This document shows positions 6,401-62,885 of a DNA stretch of 64,000 nt, piece by piece. The stretch lies in the NCBI GenBank assembly GCA_016873275.1, contig VGXO01000001.1, positions 61,678 through 125,677 of the forward strand, in the 5' to 3' direction. This DNA comes from Phycisphaerae bacterium. Lineage in GTDB: Bacteria; Planctomycetota; Phycisphaerae; Phycisphaerales; SM1A02. The notes under the pieces were generated by a model that was given only the letters and a program-made list of their open reading frames with translations, did not search any database and was not told the origin of the DNA. The position numbers and the translations under genes are program-made. Within the stretch, counting starts at the first letter, position 1, and every line of letters starts with the position of its first letter.

Positions 6401-7291
6401 TCAGGGACCACTTCCCGCGGCGGACTGCTCGATCTCGACCACCTTGAGGTCGATCAGGAGCTCGTAGGAGGAGATGAAGAGGCAGAACCGCCAGCCCGCG
6501 AGCCCGTCGAGGAATCCGAGGCGGAGGACGTACATGTGCAGGAAGCGGAAGAGCCACCGCGCGGGCAGGCGGGGGTAGATCCGCTCCTTGAACCAGCGGC
6601 GCCGGGCGATGGGTCCGCCGAGCCCGCGGGCGCCGGCGGCGGTCGCCTCGCCCCGGCGGAGGCGGACGATCTCCCGCGCCTCGAGGGTCGAGTAGCGGTT
6701 GTGCTTCGCCATGTACGCCTCGAGCCCGCGTCGATCGTGGTGCTCGAGGTGCCCGCGCAGGCGCCCGGCGTCGCCATCGACCACCATGTGCTCGTGGACC
6801 TCGCGCTCCTCGTACCGCGCCCGCCCGCGGCGGAAGAAGCGGAGGTTCCAGCTCGGGTAGTAGCCGCAGTGGCGGATGCGCCGACCGAGGAACACGAAGT
6901 AGCGGTTGATCCAGAATCCCTGCGGACCGGACTCGTCGGGCGGTCGCGACGCGACCGCGAGGAGCTCGTCGCGGAGCTCCGGAAGCACCACCTCGTCCGC
7001 GTCGAGGATGAGGATCCAGTCCGAGGAGAGCGGCAGGTGCCCGAGCGCCCAGTTCTTCTGCCGCGCGTAGCCAAGCCACTCCTTGGACGTGACCTCCGCG
7101 CCGAGCGAGCGGGCAAGCTCGATCGAGCCATCGGTCGAGCCGGAATCGACCACGTGCACGCGGTCCGCCCAGGCGATCACGCTGCCGAGCGAGTGCGGGA
7201 GGTTCACGACCTCGTCGCGCACGATCATCACGACCTCGACGTTGCTGCGTCGGGCGTCGCCGGAGCCGGGCGTTCTCGAGGTTCGTTCCAT
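6401..7291 (-). CDS. GT2-family glycosyltransferase
   Basis: C-terminal part of the 731-aa fused ORF, trimmed to MERTSRT.... Contains VVMIVRDE...VVDSGSTDGS...ILILDADE (DxD) and a ...AKHNRYSTLEA tail. Confidence 0.85.
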   Translation of the reverse strand: MERTSRTPGSGDARRSNVEVVMIVRDEVVNLPHSLGSVIAWADRVHVVDSGSTDGSIELARSLGAEVTSKEWLGYARQKNWALGHLPLSSDWILILDADEVVLPELRDELLAVASRPPDESGPQGFWINRYFVFLGRRIRHCGYYPSWNLRFFRRGRARYEEREVHEHMVVDGDAGRLRGHLEHHDRRGLEAYMAKHNRYSTLEAREIVRLRRGEATAAGARGLGGPIARRRWFKERIYPRLPARWLFRFLHMYVLRLGFLDGLAGWRFCLFISSYELLIDLKVVEIEQSAAGSGP

Positions 7292-7344
7292 GCCGGGACC
7301 CGCCGGTCTATCGACCGTTCGCTCGCGGGCGTTCCAGCGGTCGA

Positions 7345-8493
7345 TCAGGTCGCCCGCCGCGCGGCGAGGGCGGCGAGGTCCGCGAGGTGGCGCGCCGCGA
7401 GCGCCCCGACCGAGAACCCCTGCATGTGCTCCGCCGCCCGTCGACCGAGGCGCGATCGAAGCGCTGGATCGTCGAGCAGGCGCCGCAGCCGGTCGGCAAG
7501 CGCCCGCGTCGCCTCGTCGTCTGCGAGCCCGAGCGGGACCGCGAGCCCGTGCTCGCCGTCGACGACGACCCCCGCGTACTGCGGAAGCGCCGCGACCACG
7601 GGGGCGAGCCCGCACGCCATCGCCTCGAGTGGCGCGACCGGGAGCGCCTCGCCCTCGGCGGCGGTGGAGGGATAGGCGTAGAGGTCGGCGCCGCGCAGCT
7701 CCTCCGCGAGCGCCCGCGGGTCGGCGACCGCCCCGACGAGCTCGATCTCCGAGCCTCGCGCGAGCGCCCGCAGCCGTTCGATCAGCGGGGCGCCGCCGCC
7801 GCCCGCCTCGCGCGAGCTCGGACCGACGAGGCGCAGGCGGACGCGCCTTCCCTCGTCGAGGAGCCGCCGCCACGCCGCGACGAGGAGATCGAGCCGCTTC
7901 TCGGGGTGCAGCCGTCCCGTATAGAGAAGGACGGGAGGATCGCCCGTCGCCCGGGGCGGCGAGGGGGGTCGGAAGACCTCGAGGTCGACCGGGTTGGGCA
8001 GGACGCGGATCCTCTCCGAGAGCGCCGGCTGCTCGGCGGAGATCGCATCGGCGATCGCCCGCGAGACGGTCGAGATCGAGTCGACCCGCGCGTAGAGGCG
8101 CATCTGTCCCTTGGGGAAGCGCTGGACGTGGACCTCGAGGACGCCGAGGCGCCGCCGCGCGGAGGGACCGCCGAGGAGCCACGGGAGCCACACGCAGTTG
8201 GTGATCGTGACGTCCGCGTCCGGCAGGAGCCACCGGGCGCGTCGCGACCAGAAGAAGTCGCGGAGGACGTCGCGCCACAGCCGACCCGAGCGGTCGAGGA
8301 GGGGCATCCGGCGGTAGGACACGCCCTCCCATCCATCGCCTCGCGGAAGGTCGGGGTGGTCGGCGCCCACCACCGTCACCGCGTGCCCGCGCCGCGCGAG
8401 CTCGCGCGCGATCGACCACCAGACCTTCTCGACGGCGCCGCTCGGCGCGGGCGGCGGGGGCTTGAAGGGACCTAGGACGATGGTGAGGCGCAT
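7345..8493 (-). CDS. GT1/GT4-family glycosyltransferase
   Basis: 382-aa ORF starting MRLTIVLGPFKPPPPAPSGAVEKVWW.... C-terminal ...YPSTAAEGEALPVAPLEAMACG... matches a retaining-GT signature. Confidence 0.85.
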   Translation of the reverse strand: MRLTIVLGPFKPPPPAPSGAVEKVWWSIARELARRGHAVTVVGADHPDLPRGDGWEGVSYRRMPLLDRSGRLWRDVLRDFFWSRRARWLLPDADVTITNCVWLPWLLGGPSARRRLGVLEVHVQRFPKGQMRLYARVDSISTVSRAIADAISAEQPALSERIRVLPNPVDLEVFRPPSPPRATGDPPVLLYTGRLHPEKRLDLLVAAWRRLLDEGRRVRLRLVGPSSREAGGGGAPLIERLRALARGSEIELVGAVADPRALAEELRGADLYAYPSTAAEGEALPVAPLEAMACGLAPVVAALPQYAGVVVDGEHGLAVPLGLADDEATRALADRLRRLLDDPALRSRLGRRAAEHMQGFSVGALAARHLADLAALAARRAT

Positions 8494-26196: not shown

Positions 26197-26856
26197 ATGA
26201 TCACCACCGACGACCAAGGCAGGCGACCACGCGGCCGAACGAGCGCGCCCGCGGTCGTCGGCACGATCGTGGTGATCGCCGCGGCGGTGCTCCTCGGGGT
26301 GGTGGGACCGCGTCTCGCCGACCGCGGCCTCGCGCCCACGGGAGTCCCGGTGTCTTCCGTGATCGAGTCGCTCTCCGCCCGTCACGCCGGTCTCGGTCCC
26401 GACCCGGATCCGTCGCGCCTTCCCTCCGACTGGCGGCGGCGCATCGCGGAGGAGACCCATCGAGAGGTGATGCTCCGCGACGACCTCGCCGCCGATGGAT
26501 GGACGCTCGTCGCGTTCCGCGCCGAGCCGCCGCGACCCTTCGCCGACCTGCCCGTCGCCGCGACCGCGCTCCTCGAGGCAGCCGATGGCGGACCACTCCT
26601 CTCGGTCACCGCGATCAGGGATGATGGGTCGATTCACCGCCTCGACGGCTTCGCGCGGCCGCGTCCGCTCCGCGAGGGCGAGCGGCTTCGCCTCGACGGC
26701 TCGCAGACGATCCATGGCACCGCCGTGCTCGCGGTCGTCGAGGGCGATCTGCTCTGGGTCCTCCTCTGCGAGGACGCCGCCCGCCTCGACGCCGTGGAGG
26801 ACGAGCTGCTCGGTCCGCCGCCGACCGCGGGGGACGCCGCGGACTCCCCGGCGTGA
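26197..26856 (+). CDS. hypothetical membrane-anchored protein
   Basis: Tail of the 671-aa fused ORF, trimmed to MITTDDQGRR.... One TM helix (VVGTIVVIAAAVLLGVVG). No family recognised. Confidence 0.5.
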   Translation: MITTDDQGRRPRGRTSAPAVVGTIVVIAAAVLLGVVGPRLADRGLAPTGVPVSSVIESLSARHAGLGPDPDPSRLPSDWRRRIAEETHREVMLRDDLAADGWTLVAFRAEPPRPFADLPVAATALLEAADGGPLLSVTAIRDDGSIHRLDGFARPRPLREGERLRLDGSQTIHGTAVLAVVEGDLLWVLLCEDAARLDAVEDELLGPPPTAGDAADSPA

Positions 26857-26899
26857 TGCGGGGACCCGCTTCGAATCCCTCTCCGCCCATTCCTTGAGC

Positions 26900-26924
26900 G
26901 GTCGCCGCTGCGGCGGCGACCTTT
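26900..26924 (+). terminator. terminator-like hairpin (9-bp stem, TGCG loop, TTT)
   Basis: ggtcgccgc-tgcg-gcggcgacc followed by ttt, 44 nt after the 26197..26856 stop. Confidence 0.4.
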
Positions 26925-26936
26925 GGTGCTTCGACC

Positions 26937-26974
26937 CGTGGTTGTGTTCGCTCGCACCGAGCGGCACAACCACG
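26937..26974. other. long imperfect hairpin at the left edge of the island
   Basis: cgtggttgtg-tt-cgctcg-cac-cgagcg-g-cacaaccacg, giving 10+6 bp of stem. Confidence 0.5.
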
Positions 26975-27126
26975 CTGCGTTTGGGGGGTTACGCGAGGGT
27001 GAAACGAAGCGGTGCGAACCACTGTTTCCGTTTGGGCGGTCGGGTGCTGTGACGCCCAGAATCTCAAACTTGGGCGCCGCTTTGGGGGCGAAGTGCGTCG
27101 CTTTTTGCGTCGCTTTGGAGGCGCGG

Positions 27127-27975
27127 TCAGCCCGCCCGGATCGCGTCTCGCAGCGCCTCGATCGCGGGCGCGCGCTCGGGTGCAACGCCTGCGGCCGCCC
27201 CCTGGAGGACGCCGTCCGCCTTCGTCGCGGCTGCGGAGAGAAGCGGGCTGTCCTCGGCGACGCCCGCCGCGCGCGCGCGCTCCAGCGTGCGCAGGAACTC
27301 GAGCACGGCTCCGTACGCGGCTTGCCAGTCGACCGTCACGACATCGGCCACGTCGCAACGCAGCAGCTGTGCCCACGGCGTCGGATCGAGGATCGTGCAG
27401 AAGCCGTGCTCCAGGCGCACGAGCCCGGCATCCGCCCACGATGCGGCCGTGTCCGCGACGCAGCGGTACGTGTAGCCGGTCGAGTCGGACACGTCGCGGC
27501 AGCGCACGCCGCGCGGGCTTCCGAGGAGCGCCACGATGAGATACGCGGCGCAGTCGTTCCCGAGCACGTCGCGCGACCGCAGGTGAAGCGATGCGGGGGT
27601 CGATGCCGCGAGGCCCACGTGCTTGCGCGTCACGAGTCGGCGAAGGCCGTTGATGCTCCGCCAGGCAGCAACGCGTGTCGCTTCTGCGGGCTCCTGTTCA
27701 TTGCGCCGCGTGAGCGTGTTGAGGCGCTGCGTATTGACGCGCGCGCGGTTCGTGGCGAACCAGCTTCGCACGGCCTCCTCGAGCCGCGGTTCGCTCCCGA
27801 AGAAGTGCAGCGAGCACCACAGCAGCGCCTCGGGGTCGATCACCTCAAGCGGTTGGTCGAACTCCGGTGTCTGGAAGGGCACGCCCAGCTCGCGCCACTG
27901 CACGTGCAGCACGTCGAGCAGCGCCGCGCGGACGCGCTCCTCACGCGATGTAGTAGGCGAGGTCTTCATGGCCAA
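27127..27975 (-). CDS. hypothetical protein with possible winged-helix segment
   Basis: 282-aa ORF that overlaps the upstream NTase gene by about 35 nt. The segment ...CAAYLIVALLGSPRGVRCRDVSDSTGYTYRCVADTAASWADAGLVRLE looks wHTH-like. No family recognised. Confidence 0.55.
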   Translation of the reverse strand: MAMKTSPTTSREERVRAALLDVLHVQWRELGVPFQTPEFDQPLEVIDPEALLWCSLHFFGSEPRLEEAVRSWFATNRARVNTQRLNTLTRRNEQEPAEATRVAAWRSINGLRRLVTRKHVGLAASTPASLHLRSRDVLGNDCAAYLIVALLGSPRGVRCRDVSDSTGYTYRCVADTAASWADAGLVRLEHGFCTILDPTPWAQLLRCDVADVVTVDWQAAYGAVLEFLRTLERARAAGVAEDSPLLSAAATKADGVLQGAAAGVAPERAPAIEALRDAIRAG

Positions 27976-28555
27976 GCTCCTGCAGGAACTCGCGCAGCTC
28001 GGCGCGGAGTTGGTGGTTGCGGTCGGGGATCGTGATCACCCAGTCGATGGCGAACCGCAGCTCTTCTTCGTTCGGGGCGAGTTCGCGCAAGTCCGACTTA
28101 TGCACCGACTGTCGACCGTGTGCGGCGTCGACCGCCGCGAACAGCTTGAAGGCGATCAGGTCGCGCCGGTCCGGAAGCCGCAGCGTGAGGTGCGTGCCGA
28201 TGTGGCGGGGGGTGAGCCTTCCCGTGCATCCAGGTGGCAGGCCGAAGTCGAGGAGTCCCTTGGGACCGAGGTTGACCCAGCTGATCCCAGACGACTTGAG
28301 CTCGGAATGCGCGTCGGCCACGCGCACGATGGCTCGTTCCACCGCGGGTGGGAAGCGATCGATCTGGACGATCTGCAGCGTTGCGGAACTCCAACCGCTG
28401 ATCACGTCGACGTCGCGCGTCGGCCGTTGCACCAGGCCGAGGATCCCGAGGGCGGTACCGCCGCAGACGATCCAGTCCACGGGCTCGGCGCCCTCGATCG
28501 CGAGCGCGTCGTTGAGCTCGCGGAGCAGGGGATGGGTGGCGGCGGGATCGATCAT
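27941..28555 (-). CDS. nucleotidyltransferase-fold protein (AbiEii-like NTase motif, short form)
   Basis: Trimmed to the in-frame ATG (MIDPAATHPLL...), because the upstream codons are AT-rich. WIVCGGTALGILGLVQRPTRDVDVIS fits the hG[GS]x9-13Dh[DE]h motif of pol-beta NTases and AbiEii. Confidence 0.65.
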   Translation of the reverse strand: MIDPAATHPLLRELNDALAIEGAEPVDWIVCGGTALGILGLVQRPTRDVDVISGWSSATLQIVQIDRFPPAVERAIVRVADAHSELKSSGISWVNLGPKGLLDFGLPPGCTGRLTPRHIGTHLTLRLPDRRDLIAFKLFAAVDAAHGRQSVHKSDLRELAPNEEELRFAIDWVITIPDRNHQLRAELREFLQELGHEDLAYYIA

Positions 28556-28640
28556 GGGGGTTCCTCGGCTGGAACAGTAGGCTACAGGGCATAAATGTAG
28601 AAGTTTAAGTTCCACAAAGACGCACCGGAGACTCTTCGAT

Positions 28641-28751
28641 GGACAGATAACTGCTATGACGCCCTACGGCAGTGCAGGAAGGGCGGTCCGATTCGCTCCT
28701 CCTACAGCGGCTGTCCCCGGTGTCACCGGAACCGAAACCCCTTCTCACGCG
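28641..28751. repeat. third, degenerate copy of the island junction module
   Basis: Contains ggacagat and tgtcaccggaaccgaaaccccttctcacgc. Compare cgtcaccggtgccgaaaccccttcgcgc at about 29641 and cgtcaccggtaccgaaaccgcctcgcg at about 32801. Confidence 0.45.
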
Positions 28752-28796
28752 TGCCCGCCATCGATTTCGGCGACGCCGACGGCACGCCGTGGGCGG

Positions 28797-29438
28797 TCAA
28801 CCCCTGGCCGCGAGCAGGACGTCGACGTACGGCGCCATCACCGCCTGCACGCGGTTGATGCGCGCGAAGTGCAGTAGGTCCTTCACCTTTGCATCCTTGC
28901 GACGCAGGTAGGTGCGCAGCGCCTCGATCGCGATGTCCTTGCCGATCTTGTTGCGGAACTTGAAGCAGTCGGCGACGGTCTTCGCGGCCCCGTAGACGCG
29001 GAGCTCGCGACCACCGACCTTGATGCGCTCGATGCCGACGGCAAACGATGCGTCACCGAAGCGATAGAAGCGCACCGGTGGGTGTTCAAGCTTGCGGTCC
29101 TTGAAGCCGCGCGGCACCGCGAGGTCGACCGCATGCGGGATCTGCGTGGTGAGGCGGTGGTGGGCCAGCGCCGAGACAAGACAGACGATTGCCTTGGGCA
29201 CCTTCCGGGCCACCACCGCGAGATCGGGTTCCGATGGCGCTGCATCGGCAAGTTGGTAGACGCCGCGGTCGAGCCTGACCACCGTGCCATCCTCCACGAG
29301 CGCCGCCAGCGTGCGCGGATGGATGCCAGCAGCCTTGGCCTCTTGGGTGCGGAGGATGCCCTCGGCGCGCCGGAAGGCGGCCGTTGCCCTCCGGGTTGGG
29401 GGCTTTGGGATCGGGGTGCTGGAGGGGGCGCGCGGCAT
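28797..29438 (-). CDS. abiEi: AbiEi-family type IV toxin-antitoxin antitoxin / transcriptional regulator
   Basis: ILRTQEAKAAGIHPRTLAALVEDGTVVRLDRGVYQLAD (AbiEi N-terminal wHTH) plus ...IVCLVSALAHHRLTTQIPHAVDLAVP.... Trimmed to MPRAPSS because the first 13 codons of the ORF are AT-rich and hold a promoter-like inverted repeat. Confidence 0.8.
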   Translation of the reverse strand: MPRAPSSTPIPKPPTRRATAAFRRAEGILRTQEAKAAGIHPRTLAALVEDGTVVRLDRGVYQLADAAPSEPDLAVVARKVPKAIVCLVSALAHHRLTTQIPHAVDLAVPRGFKDRKLEHPPVRFYRFGDASFAVGIERIKVGGRELRVYGAAKTVADCFKFRNKIGKDIAIEALRTYLRRKDAKVKDLLHFARINRVQAVMAPYVDVLLAARG

Positions 29439-29450
29439 AGGGATCGAAAG

Positions 29451-29476
29451 TGCTACAGATATCGACAAGTGTAGCA
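29451..29476. promoter_or_regulatory. inverted repeat TGCTACA-N12-TGTAGCA overlapping a TACACT -10-like hexamer upstream of abiEi
   Basis: Read from the sequence. It lies 13-38 nt upstream of the abiEi ATG. Confidence 0.45.
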
Positions 29477-29530
29477 TCTACGATCCATCTTTGTGGATGA
29501 TCTTCGTCGAAAGCCTGTGCTCAGCCCCCG

Positions 29531-29775
29531 CAAAACTGGTCGTCTGAGAAGGACAGATTGGCGGTAATCTGGTCGTCTGAGAAGGACAGATGGTCCTGGC
29601 ACACTGGCCCGACGTATCCCCGCGCCCACGGCGTCACCGCGTCACCGGTGCCGAAACCCCTTCGCGCTCAAGCCGTCGCGCGGACCGGCGCCGCCTGCGC
29701 CTCGGCCTCACCGACCGGGGCATGCACCTGATCGCCACCGCGAAGTGCGCATCCCGCGTCTGCAGGGAGTGCTTC
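29531..29775. repeat. island junction module, copy 1 (about 245 bp)
   Basis: Aligns by eye with 32693..32937 at roughly four-fifths identity. It includes two 23-mers, a palindromic box and the integrase 3' tail. Confidence 0.8.
29536..29591. repeat. two direct 23-bp repeats, CTGGTCGTCTGAGAAGGACAGAT, at 33-bp spacing
   Basis: Identical copies at 29536-29558 and 29569-29591. Anchored on the stop of ORF 29284..29547. Confidence 0.85.
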
Positions 29776-29934
29776 GCCGCCACCAGCGGACTGCGGCCAA
29801 CCCAGTTGGCGACCACGTGGACGGGAGAGGTCTCGGCCCAGTCGGTGGCGAAGTTCGAAGTTCGCGCGCACGACGCACAAGGACGGTGGCCACGAATCGG
29901 ACTCCGCCCGGCGGCCCGGACACGAGCCGATCGG
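29668..29934 (-). pseudogene. tyrosine recombinase C-terminal remnant (frameshifted)
   Basis: Hand translation: ...CASCARTSNFATDWAETSPVHVVANWVGRSPLVAAKHSLQTRDAHFAVAI.... It resembles the box II end of planctomycete-type integrases (LRaS..TeL....P.HVv..WlGhS..vA.kHYLQvtdeHF). The expected Tyr reads Ser, the frame breaks before the ...GEAEAQAAPVRATA stop, and there is no N-terminal part. Confidence 0.55.
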
Positions 29935-31308
29935 TCACTGATCGCCCAAGGAAGGGAGGCTGCCGCCCTCGTCGTCCACCGCTTCCCAGAAGGCCCGCTT
30001 GAGCCGGTGGCGGGACGCCAGTTCGGCGTCGAACGCTCGCTGGTCGGCGTTCAGTCCGGCGACCGGGGCCAGCGCCCGCATCCGGACGAGGTACCACGCG
30101 GCGTGTGCGTAGACCTTGCGGCGGCCATCCGCGAGGATCGACTCGAGCATCGCTCGGTAGAGGCGCCAACTCGCGCTCGGCGCGGCCGGCTCGAGACGCT
30201 TCGCAAGCCGCAGCAGCACGCCGTACTCGTGGCCGTCGAGTTCCGCGGCCCGCTCGGTGACCAGCTGTGCTGCCTCGTGCAGGGCGTCCGCCTCGAGCAG
30301 GAAGTCAAGCGCGACATGGACGTCGGGATGACGCGACGCCACACCGAGCGCCCGCTTCCGCCGCTCCGTCGCGCCGGTGTCCGGGCTCGAACGCGCCTCG
30401 ATGTCCGCAAGCGCCGCGAGGCTCGGTCGGCGACTGAACTCCTCCCACAGTGCTGCAGCGGCCTCGTCCAATCGCCCGAGCCGACGCAACGCCAACGAGC
30501 GCACCATCGCCGCACCATACGGCTCGTCGTGCGGCCGACTTGGATCACGATCCCGATGCGCTGCCACCGCGCGATCGATCCACGCGAGCGCCTCCTCGTG
30601 GCGGCCGGCCTCCATCAGTCGTCGTGCGATCGCGATGCCAAGGTGATGCGCCGGGCCGTCGAGGTTGCACAGGCGGATGAACTCGTCGACTTCCCCCAAG
30701 CCGTCCGCGATGTCGCGGAGATGGGTCGCGAGGCTCGATCGTGCGCTCAGCCGGCTGCTCGACTCGCGCGACCAGGAAGCCCGTTCCGCGGCGGTCAGCG
30801 GAGGAACGGCCGCGAGCTCGGCCTCGTAGCGGCGGCGCAGCGTGTGAAGCCCCTCGGGCCCGAGCGCGGCGACGAATCCTGCGATCATGTGGTCGGAGAT
30901 CGGGCTCGCGGCCTTCTCGACGCGACTGCGGACCATGGCAGCCAGCTTCTTCCGGTCCCGCGGTTCGATGCGGGCCCATGCCGCACCCCAGAGCCGGGTC
31001 GCCCTCGAGCACAGCGGATGGAACACGCCGCCCGAGTCGTCGATCCGTTCGGTCACCGGACCAGATGAGTTCACGATCCGCTTCAGCAGCGGCTCGGCCT
31101 CGGTGGCCCGACCCGCCTCGATCATCCGCTCGAGCTCATCGAGGCAGGGGGCGAGCATCGCCGCGAGTTCGGAGGCGACTCCGTACGGCCCGGGGCGCCG
31201 CCGTGCAGACGCGAAGACGGCTTCCACCGCCTCGTCGATCGGGATCGCCACACCGGTGTTCCTCGGCTTCCTCCTCAATGCCCGAGCTCCCGGCGAGCTT
31301 CGGGGCAC
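29935..31308 (-). CDS. hypothetical alpha-helical repeat protein
   Basis: 457-aa ORF with coding-like composition, immediately downstream of the ATPase. No family confidently recognised. Confidence 0.6.
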   Translation of the reverse strand: MPRSSPGARALRRKPRNTGVAIPIDEAVEAVFASARRRPGPYGVASELAAMLAPCLDELERMIEAGRATEAEPLLKRIVNSSGPVTERIDDSGGVFHPLCSRATRLWGAAWARIEPRDRKKLAAMVRSRVEKAASPISDHMIAGFVAALGPEGLHTLRRRYEAELAAVPPLTAAERASWSRESSSRLSARSSLATHLRDIADGLGEVDEFIRLCNLDGPAHHLGIAIARRLMEAGRHEEALAWIDRAVAAHRDRDPSRPHDEPYGAAMVRSLALRRLGRLDEAAAALWEEFSRRPSLAALADIEARSSPDTGATERRKRALGVASRHPDVHVALDFLLEADALHEAAQLVTERAAELDGHEYGVLLRLAKRLEPAAPSASWRLYRAMLESILADGRRKVYAHAAWYLVRMRALAPVAGLNADQRAFDAELASRHRLKRAFWEAVDDEGGSLPSLGDQ

Positions 31309-31333
31309 GGAACCGGAAGCCGCCTCCGCCCGC

Positions 31334-32677
31334 TCATGGCGACGCCAGCAGCCACTGGTGGGCCGCGATCACGCGTGTCTTGCGATGGGTCATCGAGCGA
31401 ACGAGGCCCGGGTCGAGGACGATCACGGCGCGTTCGGCCTTCGGATGCTCGTCGCCCCCGGCATCGAGAGCGCGAGTCTCGCGGCTCCACGTCGCCGGGT
31501 CCGACCCGTCGGCGCAGACCTGGATCAGTTCCTGCCGACCATCCGGGTGGCGTGCGAGGAAGTCGACCTCGAAGCCGTCCTTCGTCTTCACGTAGGCGAC
31601 TTCGGCGCCGCGCCGGGACAGCTCGTTGTAGACGGCGGTCTCTAGCGCGTGGCCGGTGTTCGATCGCCCGCTCGTGTCGAAGGCGTCGATCAGACCGGGA
31701 TCCGCGGGGTAGACCTTCCGTGGGTTCGTGTTTCGTCGGCGCTCCGAATCCGTGGCGACCGGCACCGCGGCGATGACGAAGGCGTCGATCAGGTGGTCCA
31801 GCAGCGCGTGAACCGTGTCCTTCGCCACGTTGTGGCCTTGCGAGCGAAGATCGTCGTGCAGCTTGTTGGCGCTGAGGCTGCCGCAAGGGTTCCGCAGTGC
31901 GTGTCGGATGATCCAGCGCAGTGCGGCGACCTGCGACACCGCATGCCGCTCGATCACGTCCCGGAAGAGCATGGTGTCGATGTAGCCCTGCAAGAGCGCG
32001 ATCCGGGTGGCGCGGTCGAGCGGCCGCTTGCCCGAACCTTGCGCTTCGGGAAACCCGCCCACCACGAGGTACTCGCGGAGGCGCTTTTCGACCGCGCTCC
32101 TCAATGCTGCCGTCAGTCGATCCGCACGCACCGTCGGCTCCTCGCCGCGGTGGCGGAGCGCCTCGCGGAAGCTGAAGGGCGCGATCACGGTGGGCATGGC
32201 GCGGCCGCGGAGGGAGCTGTGGATCTCGCGCGACAGCATGCGCGCAGACGACCCGGACACGACGATGTCGATCGACTCGGTGTCGAGCACGCGCCGGACG
32301 AAACGATCCCAGCCTTCCACCAGCTGGATCTCGTCGAGGAACCACGCGGCACGGCCCTTCCTTCCATCCTTGCCGCGGATCTCCGGGTGGCGGCGGAAGT
32401 ACTCCTCGAGGAGGGCGTCGAGATGGGACGCGTCGATCCCTGCGAGACGGTCGTCGTCAAAGCTCAGGTAGATCGATCGTTCCGGCGGACCGCTCTTGCG
32501 CCGCTCGGCAAGCAGCTGCCTGAGGAAGCACGTCTTTCCCGCGCGACGCATCCCGATCACGGCATGCGCCTTCCCCGGCACGGCGGGCGGGACGGCGTCG
32601 CGCCGCGTGAGGGTGGTGGCGGCAAGCGGCAGCAGCGCGTCGCTGAGCTTCTCCTGGAGCGCGTCGAGCAGGGGCAT
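31334..32677 (-). CDS. AAA+ ATPase of the AAA_14/DUF4143 type
   Basis: Trimmed to MPLLDALQEKL.... Contains GMRRAGKT (Walker A), AWFLDEIQLVEGW (Walker B) and VVSGSSARML...LRGRA...PFSFREAL, typical of this family. Confidence 0.85.
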   Translation of the reverse strand: MPLLDALQEKLSDALLPLAATTLTRRDAVPPAVPGKAHAVIGMRRAGKTCFLRQLLAERRKSGPPERSIYLSFDDDRLAGIDASHLDALLEEYFRRHPEIRGKDGRKGRAAWFLDEIQLVEGWDRFVRRVLDTESIDIVVSGSSARMLSREIHSSLRGRAMPTVIAPFSFREALRHRGEEPTVRADRLTAALRSAVEKRLREYLVVGGFPEAQGSGKRPLDRATRIALLQGYIDTMLFRDVIERHAVSQVAALRWIIRHALRNPCGSLSANKLHDDLRSQGHNVAKDTVHALLDHLIDAFVIAAVPVATDSERRRNTNPRKVYPADPGLIDAFDTSGRSNTGHALETAVYNELSRRGAEVAYVKTKDGFEVDFLARHPDGRQELIQVCADGSDPATWSRETRALDAGGDEHPKAERAVIVLDPGLVRSMTHRKTRVIAAHQWLLASP

Positions 32678-32692
32678 GTCGCAAGGGTAGTC

Positions 32693-32937
32693 CGAAACTG
32701 GCCGTCTGAGAAGGATAGATTGTAGAGAATCTGGCCGTCTGAGAAGGACAGATGGTTCCGGCTCACTGGCTCGACGCATCCCCGCGCCCACGGTGTCACC
32801 GCGTCACCGGTACCGAAACCGCCTCGCGTTCAGGCCGTTGCCCGGATGGGGGCTGCCTGCGCCTCGACCTCTCCCACGCGGGGCATGTCCCTGATCGCCA
32901 CCTCGAAGTGCGCGTTCGCCCTCCACTGCGGGCGCGG
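32693..32937. repeat. island junction module, copy 2
   Basis: Direct repeat of 29531..29775, offset 3162 bp. Confidence 0.8.
32698..32753. repeat. two direct 23-bp repeats, CTGGCCGTCTGAGAAGGA(T/C)AGAT, at 33-bp spacing
   Basis: Copies at 32698-32720 and 32731-32753. The nearer copy ends 20 nt upstream of the ATPase ATG at 32677. Confidence 0.85.
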
Positions 32938-33518
32938 GCACTGATCGATGATCCGCTGCACCACCTCGTGACGCACGCACACGGCGCGGTCGGGAGTCGA
33001 CTGCGGCCTGGCGCGCAGGTGCTCGAAGGGGTTCTCGGGGACGAGCTTCCAGCGCCGCGCGCGGCTGAAGATGCACTTGGCCACGTTGACGCGCTTCGCG
33101 ATCGTCGCCGCGGCAAGCGGCTTGCGCCGGTCGCCCTTCCCGGATGAACGATCCCTGTTGCCACATGCTGCGGAACCCCCGATCGAGGTACGTCCGTCGG
33201 CACGACCGGTGGTCGCCCGGGGCGCCCGCCCGCTCGCGCAGCGCGACCCACCCAGGAAGCCCCCACGTTGCCCCGTGTGCCCTCGGCCACACCCAGTCCG
33301 CCCGACGCCGGTCCCGCCGCCCCTGCGTTCCGTGTGGCACCAGTACGCGTCCGCCCGCCGCCCGCACCCTCCGTCCGGTCTTCCGCCTTCTGCGCGCGAT
33401 CGCGCCACTCGTCGAGACCCTCGGGATAGAGCCGGGGTTTCGAGTCCTCTCCGCCCCAAGGTCGTTTCCGGACCTTCCCCGTGCTCCTCTTCCGGAACAT
33501 CTTTTCCGGACCAGTCAT
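32830..33518 (-). pseudogene. tyrosine recombinase remnant: N-terminal/core-binding part fused to the extreme C-terminal tail
   Basis: ...PLAAATIAKRVNVAKCIFSRARRWKLVPENPFEHLRARPQSTPDRAVCVRHEVVQRIIDQCPRPQWRA joins directly to NAHFEVAIRDMPRVGEVEAQAAPIRATA. The whole catalytic domain is missing. The upstream N-terminal part is spread over three frames (MTGPEKMFRKRSTGKVRKRPWGG... in another frame). Confidence 0.5.
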
Positions 33519-33606
33519 CGATTCGGAACGGATGACTTCGTACGCTCGATCGCCGCGACGCCGATCAACCTGATCCATCCTTGGACGGTCTCTGCAGACC
33601 GACATC

Positions 33607-35424
33607 ATGAGCCACCCCACGACCCGACACGCCGCCCTCCTGCTCGCCGCCATCGCCGTCTCCGCGGCGAGTGCGCAGAACGCCCTCGACCACAACCTCC
33701 AGCGCGGACCTGGCGCCTCGCGGGTCAACCCCGCCGCCCGCCAGGCCGACCTCCGCTCCCAGAACGAGGACGTGACCGGCACGCTCGCGGGCGGGCGCAG
33801 CTTCCGCGGCCGGGTGGACTACCGACCGAGCGGCGACTTCTACGGGACGGTCGCCGCCGACTCGCTGCAGCGGCCGCTCGCCTTCAGCGCGTTCAGCTCG
33901 CCGTCCTTCTTCAACTCGCCGCTGCGGAACGACCAGTTCCGCGTGGCGGACAACCTCGGCTCGTTCACCTTCCGCCGCGAGTACGCGACGCTGCCCGTCA
34001 TCGAGAACGTCGGGCAGGCGTCGGCGCTCGTCGAGAACCAGATCCGCCTCGACCGCACCAATGCCGCGATGATCAGCGGCACGCTCTTCGGCACCGCGGT
34101 CTCCTCGACGAGCATCGGGCTCGTGCGCGACGCGGAGCGGGGCTCGGCGCTCGTCACCGCCTCGCCGCTGCAGGGCGTGCGGCGGAATCCGCTCTCCGAC
34201 CCGCTCCTCGCCGCGAACCTCTCGCCGCTCGACCGCGCGCGGGTGATGGACGACGCCCGCGAGGGAACGCTCCGCGCCTCCTCGGTGGGCACGCCCTTCC
34301 GCAGCGCCCTCGCCACGCCGAGGTCCTCGAGCGAGGTGACGCCGCCCGCGGGCATGCTGGTGCCGCCCGCCTCGACCGCCCTCGTCACGGGACAGGTCGA
34401 GGCGCCCCGCGTCGAGCCGACGCCGATCGACCGCGACGCCGCCTACGAGCGGATCGTCGAGCGGATCCTGGTCCAGTTCTCCGACCGCGATGACGTCCGG
34501 ATCACCGCCGACGAGCGGGTGCTCGACGTGGTGCGGACGCGGCTCGAGGAGCTCCGCCGCAACATCGACGGGACGCTGCCCTCGACCGACGGCTCCGGGA
34601 CGCGTCGCAGGGGCGATCCCGGCGACCTGATCATGCCGGGCATGCGCGAGGACGCCGCTCCGGCGAGACCGGGCATGCCCAGGCTGCCGGGAGAGCGCCT
34701 CCGCGAGGAGTACGCCCCGGCGGCGGCACCCGAGATGCGCGGCGGCGCCGCCGAGCTGCCGGGAATCGGCGAGCTCACCCGGGACCCGCTCGCCTCGCCC
34801 GCCCAGCAGCGCGAGCGCGACCGCATGGTGCCCGAGGAGCGGGTCCTCTCGATCGACGAGATGGCGACGATCCTGCGGCATGGTCGCCTCGTCGAGAGCC
34901 TCACCGAGGGCGACCGCACCCGCATCGCCGAGCTCATCGACCAGGGTCAGCAGCTGATCGCGAAGGGGGACTTCTTCCGCGCCGAGCGCCGCTTCGAGTC
35001 GGCGCTCCGGCTGCAGCCGGACCACCCGATGGCGTCGGTGGGGATCGCGAGCTCGCAGATCGGCGCGGGGCTCTACCTCTCCGCGGGGCTGACGCTGCGG
35101 AAGCTCTTCTCGACCTATCCCGAGATGATCGACGTCCGCTACGCCGACGACCTGCTTCCCTCGCGCGACCGGCTCGACGCGGTGAAGACGGTGTGCCGCG
35201 AGCGCATCGCGCTCGGTCGGGACGTCGCCGGCTACGCGCTCGTCCTCGCCTTCGTCGGTCACCAGACGAGCGACCGCGAGGCGGTGATCGAGGGACTCGA
35301 GGTGGTGCAGACCGAGGACGAGACCCGCGGGCTCGGCGAGCTCCTGTGGGCGATCTGGATGCCGAAGGACGACGCCGCGGAGGCTCCGTCGGAGGAGCCG
35401 GCCGCGGACCCCTCGTCGCCCTGA
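33607..35424 (+). CDS. hypothetical secreted protein with C-terminal TPR-like region
   Basis: Signal peptide MSHPTTRHAALLLAAIAVSAASAQNA. C-terminal ...LIAKGDFFRAERRFESALRLQPDHPMA... is TPR-like. Confidence 0.6.
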   Translation: MSHPTTRHAALLLAAIAVSAASAQNALDHNLQRGPGASRVNPAARQADLRSQNEDVTGTLAGGRSFRGRVDYRPSGDFYGTVAADSLQRPLAFSAFSSPSFFNSPLRNDQFRVADNLGSFTFRREYATLPVIENVGQASALVENQIRLDRTNAAMISGTLFGTAVSSTSIGLVRDAERGSALVTASPLQGVRRNPLSDPLLAANLSPLDRARVMDDAREGTLRASSVGTPFRSALATPRSSSEVTPPAGMLVPPASTALVTGQVEAPRVEPTPIDRDAAYERIVERILVQFSDRDDVRITADERVLDVVRTRLEELRRNIDGTLPSTDGSGTRRRGDPGDLIMPGMREDAAPARPGMPRLPGERLREEYAPAAAPEMRGGAAELPGIGELTRDPLASPAQQRERDRMVPEERVLSIDEMATILRHGRLVESLTEGDRTRIAELIDQGQQLIAKGDFFRAERRFESALRLQPDHPMASVGIASSQIGAGLYLSAGLTLRKLFSTYPEMIDVRYADDLLPSRDRLDAVKTVCRERIALGRDVAGYALVLAFVGHQTSDREAVIEGLEVVQTEDETRGLGELLWAIWMPKDDAAEAPSEEPAADPSSP

Positions 35425-61800: not shown

Positions 61801-61822
61801 GGCGTCGAGGGTAGCGGGAGGC

Positions 61823-62050
61823 GGCGCCTGCGGCCGCAGGCGCGGGGTTCGGGGGCTGGTGCTTCGGGAGTCTCGCGGGGCTATGGACACGGCGCGGGCG
61901 GCCGCAGGCGCGGGATTCGGGTGCTGGTGCTTCGGGAGTCTCGCGAGGCTTCGGACACGGCGCCTGCGGCCGCAGGCGCGGGGTTCGGGTGCTGGTGCTT
62001 CGGGAGTCTCGAGAGGCTTCGGATACGGCGCGGGTGGCCGCCGGGCCGAC
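61823..62050. repeat. 68-bp tandem repeat, 3 full copies plus a partial fourth; each copy starts with a GC palindrome around GCGGCCGC
   Basis: Copies start at 61823, 61891, 61959 and 62027. Copies 1 and 3 carry the perfect 20-bp palindrome GCGCCTGCGGCCGCAGGCGC. Confidence 0.85.
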
Positions 62051-62078
62051 CGTCGAGGTGCGCACACGGGCGTGGCCT

Positions 62079-62135
62079 GTGGACCCAGTAGACCTTGTGG
62101 ACCCAGTGGAGGTGGACGGCGTGTGGACGGTGGAC
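62079..62135. repeat. cluster of 5 GTGGAC hexamers, inverted relative to the downstream array
   Basis: gtggacccagtagaccttgtggacccagtggaggtggacggcgtgtggacggtggac. Anchored on the ORF 62095 start. Confidence 0.75.
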
Positions 62136-62164
62136 GTTGGTGCGGCAGGCTGGCGACGTTCGGA

Positions 62165-62885
62165 CGCGGCGCCTGCGGCCGCAGGCACTGGATTCCTGTT
62201 GCCGTGCTACGGCAGTCTTGCGTGACTCCGGAAGCCCGTGCTTCGGAAGGCATCCATCACCCAGGTGCAGCGCTTCGCCCACCCAGTTGTCCACCGGGTC
62301 CACTGGGTCCACCGGGTCCACGTCCACCGATCCGAAGTCCCATGACGACGGAAGGCGCCCGCCACGCGAGCCCGTGCTTCGGAAGGCATCCGCCCGTCAC
62401 CGCAGCGCTTCGCCCACCCAGTTGTCTACTGGGTCCACTGGGTCCACCGGGTCCACGTCCACCGACCCGAAGTCCCATGACGACGGAAGGCGTCCGCCGC
62501 GCGAGCCTGTGCGACGGAAGGTGTCCGCGACTCCGGCAGCCCGTTCTTCGGGGAGCGTCCATCATCCAGGTGCAGCGCTTCGCCCACCCAGTTGTCCACA
62601 AGGTCCACTGGGTCCACCGGGTCCACGTCCACCGATCCGAAGTCCCATGACGACGGAAGGCGCCCGCCACGCGAGGCTGTGCGACGGAAGGCATCCGCGA
62701 CTCCGGAAGCCCGTGCTTCGGAAGGCATCCATCATCCATGGTGCAGCGCTTCGCCCACCCAGTTGTCTACTGGGTCCACTGGGTCCACCGGGTCCACGTC
62801 CACCGACGAACACCACCACCGGGTCCACGTCCACCGATCCGAAGTCCCACGACGACGGAAGGCATCCGCCGCGCGAGACCCTCGC
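62165..62885. repeat. 135-171-bp tandem units (4 units plus a leading partial), each with 4-6 GTCCAC hexamers at 9-bp phasing and 3 CGGAAGGC motifs
   Basis: Unit starts (GCGCTTCGCCCACCCAGTTGTC...) at 62270, 62405, 62575 and 62746. The spacings are 135, 170 and 171 bp. Confidence 0.85.

Follow-up and report, generated by a model that had tools for sequence, protein, structure and literature searches.

In the genome of a Phycisphaerae bacterium, a pair of near-palindromic 23-bp units, set 33 bp apart immediately ahead of a gene for an AAA_14/DUF4143 ATPase, probably forms an overlapping operator and promoter that travels with this gene, as judged from sequence comparison. We read the pair as belonging to the ATPase because its position, its spacing and the co-variation of its half-sites are kept where homologues of the gene sit in unrelated contexts. 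The pair recurs in the 64,000-nt stretch of DNA that was analysed (the window), ahead of the defence gene abiEi, and there (29536-29591) it is best interpreted as the relic of a duplicated block comprising an integrase gene, a spacer (U1) and the dyads, from which the -10 element and the ATPase gene have been lost. The relic pair sits where modules of a variable defence island near metG adjoin. A further role for the dyads, as a landing site for mobile defence modules, is less certain than their role as an operator.

First, the units themselves are few and well defined. Exact matches to CTGGYCGTCTGAGAAGGAYAGAT lie at four places on the forward strand of the 64-kb window (Table 1), and an exact-match search agrees with the four positions and the 33-bp spacing in both pairs that a first-pass annotation of this DNA had reported. 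No fifth match appears in the window even with three mismatches allowed, a relaxed palindrome pattern run over the window finds no sites beyond the same four, and 100 shuffles contain no match at all, which puts the chance expectation at none. The two distances given earlier, 20 nt from one pair to the ATPase start codon and about 100 nt from the other to abiEi, also hold: the ATPase ATG occupies 32677-32675 on the minus strand, and the abiEi ATG, at 29438, is 97 nt away from its pair. All the genes of the repeat region, namely those for the ATPase, the DUF6880 protein and AbiEi, are on the minus strand.

Each unit has dyad symmetry along its whole length and beyond its ends, which makes it a near-palindrome of 25-27 bp that differs from its own reverse complement at five positions. 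On the gene strand it reads AATCTG-T-CC-T-TCT-C-AGA-C-GG-C-CAGATT, or, written with its edges, (A)ATCTGTCCTTCTCAGACGGCCAG(WTT), and two of its asymmetric positions are conserved. The ATCTG and CAGAT ends that had been ascribed to every unit are found in the integrase-side unit of each pair, whereas the gene-side unit begins with AACTG and ends with CAGAT. The contrast that had been drawn between these direct repeats and the inverted repeats of AbiEi operators is largely moot and carries little weight, because a single 23-bp unit is itself nearly palindromic. As a separate matter, an Rfam scan of 26500-34000 at E<=1 gave one chance microRNA match and nothing relevant, and ARAGORN called no tRNA at the dyad sites; a structured-RNA or tRNA-derived site was rejected on these two results. 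The open frame of the ATPase (31334-32791, minus strand) continues upstream through both dyads without a stop, encoding ...LLRRP... twice, and this read-through inflates the mechanically called ORF to 485 aa, the conserved start being the ATG at 32677.

Table 1. Features of the dyad region and its neighbourhood in the window, with strand as read for the neighbouring genes (a dot marks features listed without a strand)
Feature	Position	Strand	Remarks
Distal dyad (O1), ATPase promoter region	32731..32753	-	ATCTGTCCTTCTCAGACGGCCAG on the gene strand; majority fraction 0.99 in 31 double units
Proximal dyad (O2)	32698..32720	-	Centre TTCTCA (32712-32707), proposed -35
Proposed -10, TACCCT	32684..32689	-	17 nt past the proposed -35, 6 nt before the ATG; below the promoter-scan threshold
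AAA_14 + DUF4143 ATPase, 447 aa	31334..32677	-	Pfam; PADLOC candidate PDC-S01, 5e-88
DUF6880 protein, downstream partner of the ATPase	29935..31308	-	Pfam, 8e-54; order ATPase then DUF6880 also in L009 and L041
U1 spacer, integrase stop codon to dyads	32754..32829	-	Holds GGTTTCGGTACCGGTGAC-GC-GGTGAC; missing at solo ATPase genes
Tyrosine integrase pseudogene B	32833..33207	-	Lacks the N-terminal part; intact reference P0001, 392 aa
Distal dyad, duplicated copy before abiEi	29569..29591	-	Exact match
Proximal dyad, duplicated copy	29536..29558	-	Followed by TTTTGCGGGGGCTG; no -10 and no ATPase
U1 spacer, copy A	29592..29667	-	
Integrase remnant A	29668..29934	-	Last ~60-90 codons; abuts the DUF6880 stop codon
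Inverted repeat immediately upstream of the abiEi ATG	29441..29486	.	Likely AbiEi operator, distinct from the dyads; conserved in L011 and L046
abiEi antitoxin/regulator gene	28797..29438	-	Pfam; PADLOC, 6e-70
Degenerate third copy, between abiEi and the nucleotidyltransferase (NTase) gene	28626..28760	-	U1 motif 28722-28739; 15/23 dyad 28626-28648
AbiEii/DUF6036-like nucleotidyltransferase (27941-28555) and 282-aa ORF of unknown function	27127..28555	-	Final island module
Conserved host sequence upstream of metG	26950..27126	.	AAAGCGACGC repeats; island end here and in at least eight other loci

Second, the 23-mer is conserved well beyond the window, and more strictly than the DNA around it. 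It occurs exactly in 45 loci, nearly all from freshwater Phycisphaerales/Planctomycetota: a scan of species-representative genomes found it in 15 stretches of metagenome-assembled genomes of Planctomycetota/Phycisphaerales, bar two bins labelled otherwise that we take to be mislabelled, and a metagenome scan added 30 loci, mostly from lake samples. A viral contig collection held no copy of the 23-mer, and a plasmid collection no match to the 151-nt dyad region. Across the loci the site is single or double, always at 33 nt when double, and is always co-oriented with the next gene, be it the ATPase (ATG 20 nt on), abiEi or a PIN toxin-antitoxin cassette; upstream of it stand usually an integrase stop codon and U1, sometimes abiEi and U1, or directly the stop codon of the 282-aa ORF. 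When the 31 distinct double units are compared column by column, the majority base makes up fractions of 0.99 and 0.98 in the two dyads, 0.82 in the 10-nt spacer between them and about 0.65 in the flanking DNA. One exact dyad was enough for a unit to be picked up by the search; that the second is exact too in 17 of the 31, together with this conservation, means that both sites are under strong constraint. The dyads are likewise unchanged in three loci (L001, L005 and L018) whose flanks differ by about 10% and whose context has neither the ATPase nor the integrase.

Two observations on unusual copies may be recorded here. In the same three loci (L001 at 6977-7579, L005 and L018), the dyads, together with no more than the opening ~27 codons of the ATPase, have become fused in front of a PadR-family gene. 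In L039 (863-918), an exact dyad pair lies in a contig of 46% GC beside the motif GGAAGTTTAAGTTCC, which is also found at 28603-28617 of the window, adjacent to the degenerate dyad that precedes the NTase gene.

Third, the dyads follow the ATPase gene into unrelated genomic surroundings. A protein search returned ATPase homologues of stepwise decreasing identity, five of which were compared together with their surrounding DNA. Two dyads precede the homologues that are 85% (L052/L053), 70% (L054/L055), 66% (L059/L060) and 65% (L056/L057) identical to the window ATPase, and one clear dyad, at the same position as in the others, precedes the most distant (L058, 63%). All five are single genes amid unrelated housekeeping genes, with no integrase of the family in question called within 3-6 kb. 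In L052, L054, L056 and L059 the dyads are exactly 33 nt apart from start to start and end 18-21 nt before the start codon. Their half-sites co-vary, being CTGTCC and GGACAG in most lineages and CTGGA and TCCAG in L056 (ATCTGGA...TCCAGTT), and one site in L052 is a perfect 12-1-12 palindrome, ATCTGTCCTTCT-C-AGAAGGACAGAT; thus the sequence of the dyads drifts along with the divergence of the ATPase protein and their symmetry is kept. A cooperative operator, one of the options raised in the first-pass annotation, is therefore supported with respect to the DUF4143 ATPase, whose homologues the dyads accompany with spacing and start distance kept and with co-variation, but not with respect to AbiEi.

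The same comparison suggests where the promoter may lie. At the centre of the proximal dyad stand TTGACA in L058, TTGTCA in L059, TTGAAA in L056 and TTCTCA in the window and L052; 17 nt past this hexamer follow CATCTT in L058, CATACT in L056 and L059, TACCCT in the window and TACCGT in L052, with the start codon another 6-7 nt on. In L054, the hexamer at the position homologous to the proposed -10 of the window is TATCCT. The hexamers of L056, L058 and L059 are good and those of the window (TTCTCA/TACCCT) weak, and a consensus promoter and terminator scan of 28300-33700 found no promoter. The contigs of the one RNA run (X1) are fragmentary and give no view of transcript ends. If the -35 and -10 elements of the window are assigned correctly, the ATPase mRNA would be leaderless or nearly so.

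It is thus probable that O1 and O2 work as tandem dyad-symmetric operator sites over the ATPase promoter, with their centres three turns of the helix apart. The proximal dyad O2 would carry the -35 hexamer at its centre, to be followed after 17 nt by a -10 of the TAnnnT type and 6-7 nt later by the start codon. A protein dimer on O2, aided by a second dimer on O1 on the same face of the helix, would then occlude RNA polymerase.

Which protein would do so is suggested by the gene content of the solo contexts and by the predicted fold of the ATPase. The ATPase is the only gene common to all solo contexts, and in its structure model (26 homologues, pLDDT 79) the AAA+ domain is followed by a lid, by a winged helix covering roughly residues 250-325 and, at the C-terminus, by an alpha/beta domain resembling PD-(D/E)XK folds. 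The best fold matches of the model are Orc1/Cdc6 on origin DNA (PDB 2qby), NB-ARC/STAND proteins and the archaeal ATPases SSO1545 and PABY2304; a sequence search of the PDB with the ATPase gave nothing useful. Because it alone is shared by the solo contexts and appears to possess a winged helix of its own, the ATPase itself is the likely binder, and through that domain it would repress its own gene in a negative autoregulatory loop. PDC-S01, the candidate to which the ATPase is assigned, is reported to rank as the fourth most common prokaryotic defence candidate, with some 29,500 occurrences in bacteria and 10,000 in archaea, and validation is described as pending for most such candidates (PMC12988326). 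In the literature consulted on PDC-S01 and DUF4143 we found no operator described for this ATPase family; these sources treat PDC-S01 or DUF4143 as uncharacterised, and PDC-S01 as very common.

An unlinked host transcription factor might instead own the dyads, as is the case for the regulators of several island defence modules. This would sit well with their occurrence before three kinds of defence or toxin-antitoxin module and before a PadR gene, and regulators of the WYL/BrxR family are reportedly common to diverse defence islands. We nonetheless consider such a factor unlikely, given that the solo contexts have no gene in common but the ATPase, that the dyad sequence shifts together with ATPase divergence, and that the ATPase is predicted to have a winged helix of its own.

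The AbiEi protein is another candidate binder, and for one pair in the window the resemblance is easy to see: the published operators of AbiEi and Rv2827c consist of paired 23-bp inverted repeats no more than ~130 nt from the start codon (PMC7319586), and the relic pair is at a comparable place upstream of abiEi. We find it most improbable that the repeats are AbiEi operator sites, because abiEi has, immediately ahead of its ATG, an inverted repeat of its own arranged like the published operators, which the abiEi gene of L011 retains with no dyads upstream. Moreover, most dyad pairs stand before the ATPase with no abiEi adjacent, the solo ATPase loci lack abiEi altogether, and the dyads do not, by eye, resemble the published probes. 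The suggestion that AbiEi binds the 23-bp repeats is accordingly not supported. Two arrangements are seen downstream of abiEi: in the window (27127-29438), L002, L008, L016 and L043, the gene is followed by a spacer of ~245 nt, a weakly AbiEii/DUF6036-like nucleotidyltransferase gene and the 282-aa ORF, and in L003, L014, L025, L030, L034 and L044 by an overlapping, canonical abiEii.

Taken alone, the operator reading leaves two features of the dyads unexplained. They also stand before abiEi and before the PIN toxin-antitoxin cassette, where the -10 is missing, and synteny breaks exactly at their edges in many independent combinations. Each dyad pair in the window is the end of a direct repeat of 188-240 nt (29533-29770 and 32695-32930, 85% identity), which also takes in the ~75-nt U1 spacer and the 3′-terminal part of a tyrosine integrase gene, now decayed; pseudogene B has lost about 140 internal codons and with them the catalytic core. 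The link with the integrase is real: in 16 site instances an integrase stop codon precedes the dyads by about 80 nt.

One way to connect dyads and integrase, also raised in the first-pass annotation, is that the repeats are arm-type sites for the N-terminal domain of the integrase. They are indeed directly repeated in tandem, in the interval that separates the integrase gene from the expected core, and the intact integrase P0001 (392 aa) has an N-terminus that looks arm-binding by inspection. Arm-type sites would, however, be short asymmetric boxes, whereas the units are long palindromes of the dimer type (25-27 bp) that are also found at places without any called integrase; within U1, the GGTGAC boxes, short and in tandem, are better candidates, and similar boxes precede the tRNA gene in L047 and L048. 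We therefore give the arm-type interpretation very little credence.

A second way deserves more attention, even though we favour it less than the operator: the dyads might be a core-type attachment or crossover site for the neighbouring family of tyrosine integrases, in addition to or in place of any other role, a possibility that we hold to be real yet short of even. tRNA genes are the usual attachment sites of tyrosine integrases. In place of U1 and the dyads, integrase relatives of ~66% identity have an oppositely oriented tRNA gene (tRNA-Lys in L047, tRNA-Val in L048, tRNA-Met in L051), at the position at which the dyads stand behind the integrase stop codon in the 16 instances above. The unit has the shape of a core site, with inverted arms of ~9-10 bp around a 7-bp TCTCAGA, and the layout ATCTGTCC(T)-TCTCAGA-(C)GGCCAGAT is found ~80 nt after the integrase stop codon. 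Flanks combine almost freely on its two sides: the integrase, abiEi or the 282-aa ORF may precede it and the ATPase, abiEi or the PIN cassette may follow, the breaks falling precisely at ATCTG and CCAG|TTT, and otherwise identical contexts have one site or two (L040 and L003). The contiguous loci L007 and L009 together read dyads-AbiEi...integrase-U1-dyads-ATPase, as would an element between its attachment sites, and flanking dyad copies are seen in the window array as well. The boundary between U1 and the dyads resembles the end of an element, because solo ATPase genes lack U1. Under an attachment-site scenario, elements made of cargo, integrase and U1 would perhaps integrate into the dyads and stack upstream of the resident ATPase near metG, a picture that we hold just as tentatively as the site itself.

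Several observations speak against this role. As the only role of the dyads it is at odds with the solo ATPase genes, which keep co-varying dyads with no integrase of this family called within 3-6 kb. Four lake metagenomes that contain this sequence (DNA runs X2, X3, X7 and X16) gave no excision or alternative joints: their contigs cross both pairs with even depth, and the joints listed rest on 20-21-nt matches elsewhere, a result whose reach is limited by the fact that both integrase copies in the window are dead. L046, the only locus with an intact integrase for which upstream DNA is available, has no second site at its other boundary; CTTCTCAG-CGGCC was tried there as a left-boundary attachment site and scored 22, no better than other windows of the contig. 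Two tandem cores 33 bp apart would, moreover, be an unusual attachment layout. On balance we regard an attachment role additional to the operator as a serious minority option. A fuller version, in which the dyads would have two users, serving both as ATPase operator and as the integration site of an integrase subfamily that switched from tRNA targets, with elements stacking near metG and each bringing dyads along, seems to us somewhat unlikely. In a bolder variant, the ATPase-nuclease might itself recognize or cut the dyads and so drive the exchange of modules.

Other candidates and observations from the integrase side may be listed briefly. A serine-resolvase res site was rejected, there being no serine recombinase in any annotated locus, as was the tRNA-Pro of L032 as a tRNA at the dyad site: it is a genuine tRNA located at the opposite end of the locus, and the mirroring of coordinates is coincidental. 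The U1 motif also occurs inverted, as GGTTCCGGTACCGGTGAC-ACC-GGTGAC, within a conserved segment of L046 (536-553), L038 (11831-11848) and L027 (~400-590), whose distance to the dyads is 7 kb on the upstream side in L046 and 2 kb on the downstream side in L038; this segment could be a further integrase-related site or the end of an inversion. In L047, L050 and L051, distant relatives of the integrase end small elements with HTH_17 excisionase-like genes, accompanied by a DUF3987 gene in L047 and a Prim-Pol gene in L050; the elements of L047 and L051 are inserted at tRNA genes, and the contig of L050 stops just after the integrase.

The island ends at host DNA, and the recurrence of this same end also fits elements that recombine at the dyads and pile up ahead of a resident ATPase. 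In L004, L008, L017, L019, L023, L031 and L035, the 3′ flank of the ATPase is the same sequence upstream of metG, with AAAGCGACGC direct repeats, as in the window, and several loci have a half-dyad-like GGCCGTCTGA between the ATPase stop codon and this sequence. Elsewhere in the window, at 61817-62880, tandem repeats of 68-, 135- and 170-nt period are nested in one another and contain runs of the 9-mer GTCCACYGG.

Returning to the operator, a co-varying dyad pair at the promoter predicts that proteins of the PDC-S01 type are sequence-specific DNA binders that use an Orc1/Cdc6-like winged helix, and it supplies the exact probe sequence with which this prediction can be approached. Should the link with the integrase prove true as well, mobile elements would be landing on the operator of a defence gene instead of on a tRNA gene, which would help to explain how this defence island was assembled.

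Finally, it is instructive to set the dyads beside known systems. Like the operators of AbiEi and Rv2827c, they are paired 23-bp units near the promoter of a defence or toxin-antitoxin gene, in a window that contains abiEi; those operators, however, are inverted pairs in the abiE promoter to which AbiEi binds as monomers (PMC7319586), whereas the dyads track the ATPase. They share with integron attI/attC arrays the repetition of a site between small co-oriented modules, toxin-antitoxin cassettes among them, downstream of a tyrosine recombinase, yet the site is identical between modules, palindromic in double-stranded form and devoid of R''/R' GTTRRRY boxes. Searched against NCBIfam, the integrase does not match the integron-integrase model and has weak Xer-type matches far below cut-off; an integron was rejected on the missing model match and, by inspection of the locus sequences, the lack of inverted GTTRRRY boxes. 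With Orc1/Cdc6 on origin boxes (2qby) the ATPase has in common the order of AAA+ domain and winged helix, and dyad-like DNA beside its own gene; the likeness is one of fold only, at 11-15% identity, the ATPase has an additional nuclease-like domain, and there is no sign of a replication origin here.

Elements with tRNA-targeting tyrosine integrases pile up in tandem at one site, as in integrative islands and tycheposon-like arrays. The integrase of the dyad loci likewise reads toward its site, its relatives abut tRNA genes, and decayed integrases and defence cargo have gathered at one locus; what differs is that the site beside this subfamily appears to be the operator of a protein-coding defence gene, at which recombination is putative. 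The closest parallel is with the OR and OL regions of lambda and with many autoregulated toxin-antitoxin and defence genes, in which tandem dyad operators over a promoter are bound cooperatively by repressor dimers. The dyads of the window are similarly near-palindromic, on the same face of the helix, directly before the gene and conserved in homologues, and the proximal one would cover the -35; the presumed binder, a 447-aa protein predicted to combine AAA+, winged-helix and PD-(D/E)XK domains, differs from the small repressors of those systems, and the mRNA would be leaderless. Taken by their sequence, then, the dyads seem to fall outside the families of AbiEi operators, arm sites, integrons and RNA elements, and to behave as a classical tandem operator.
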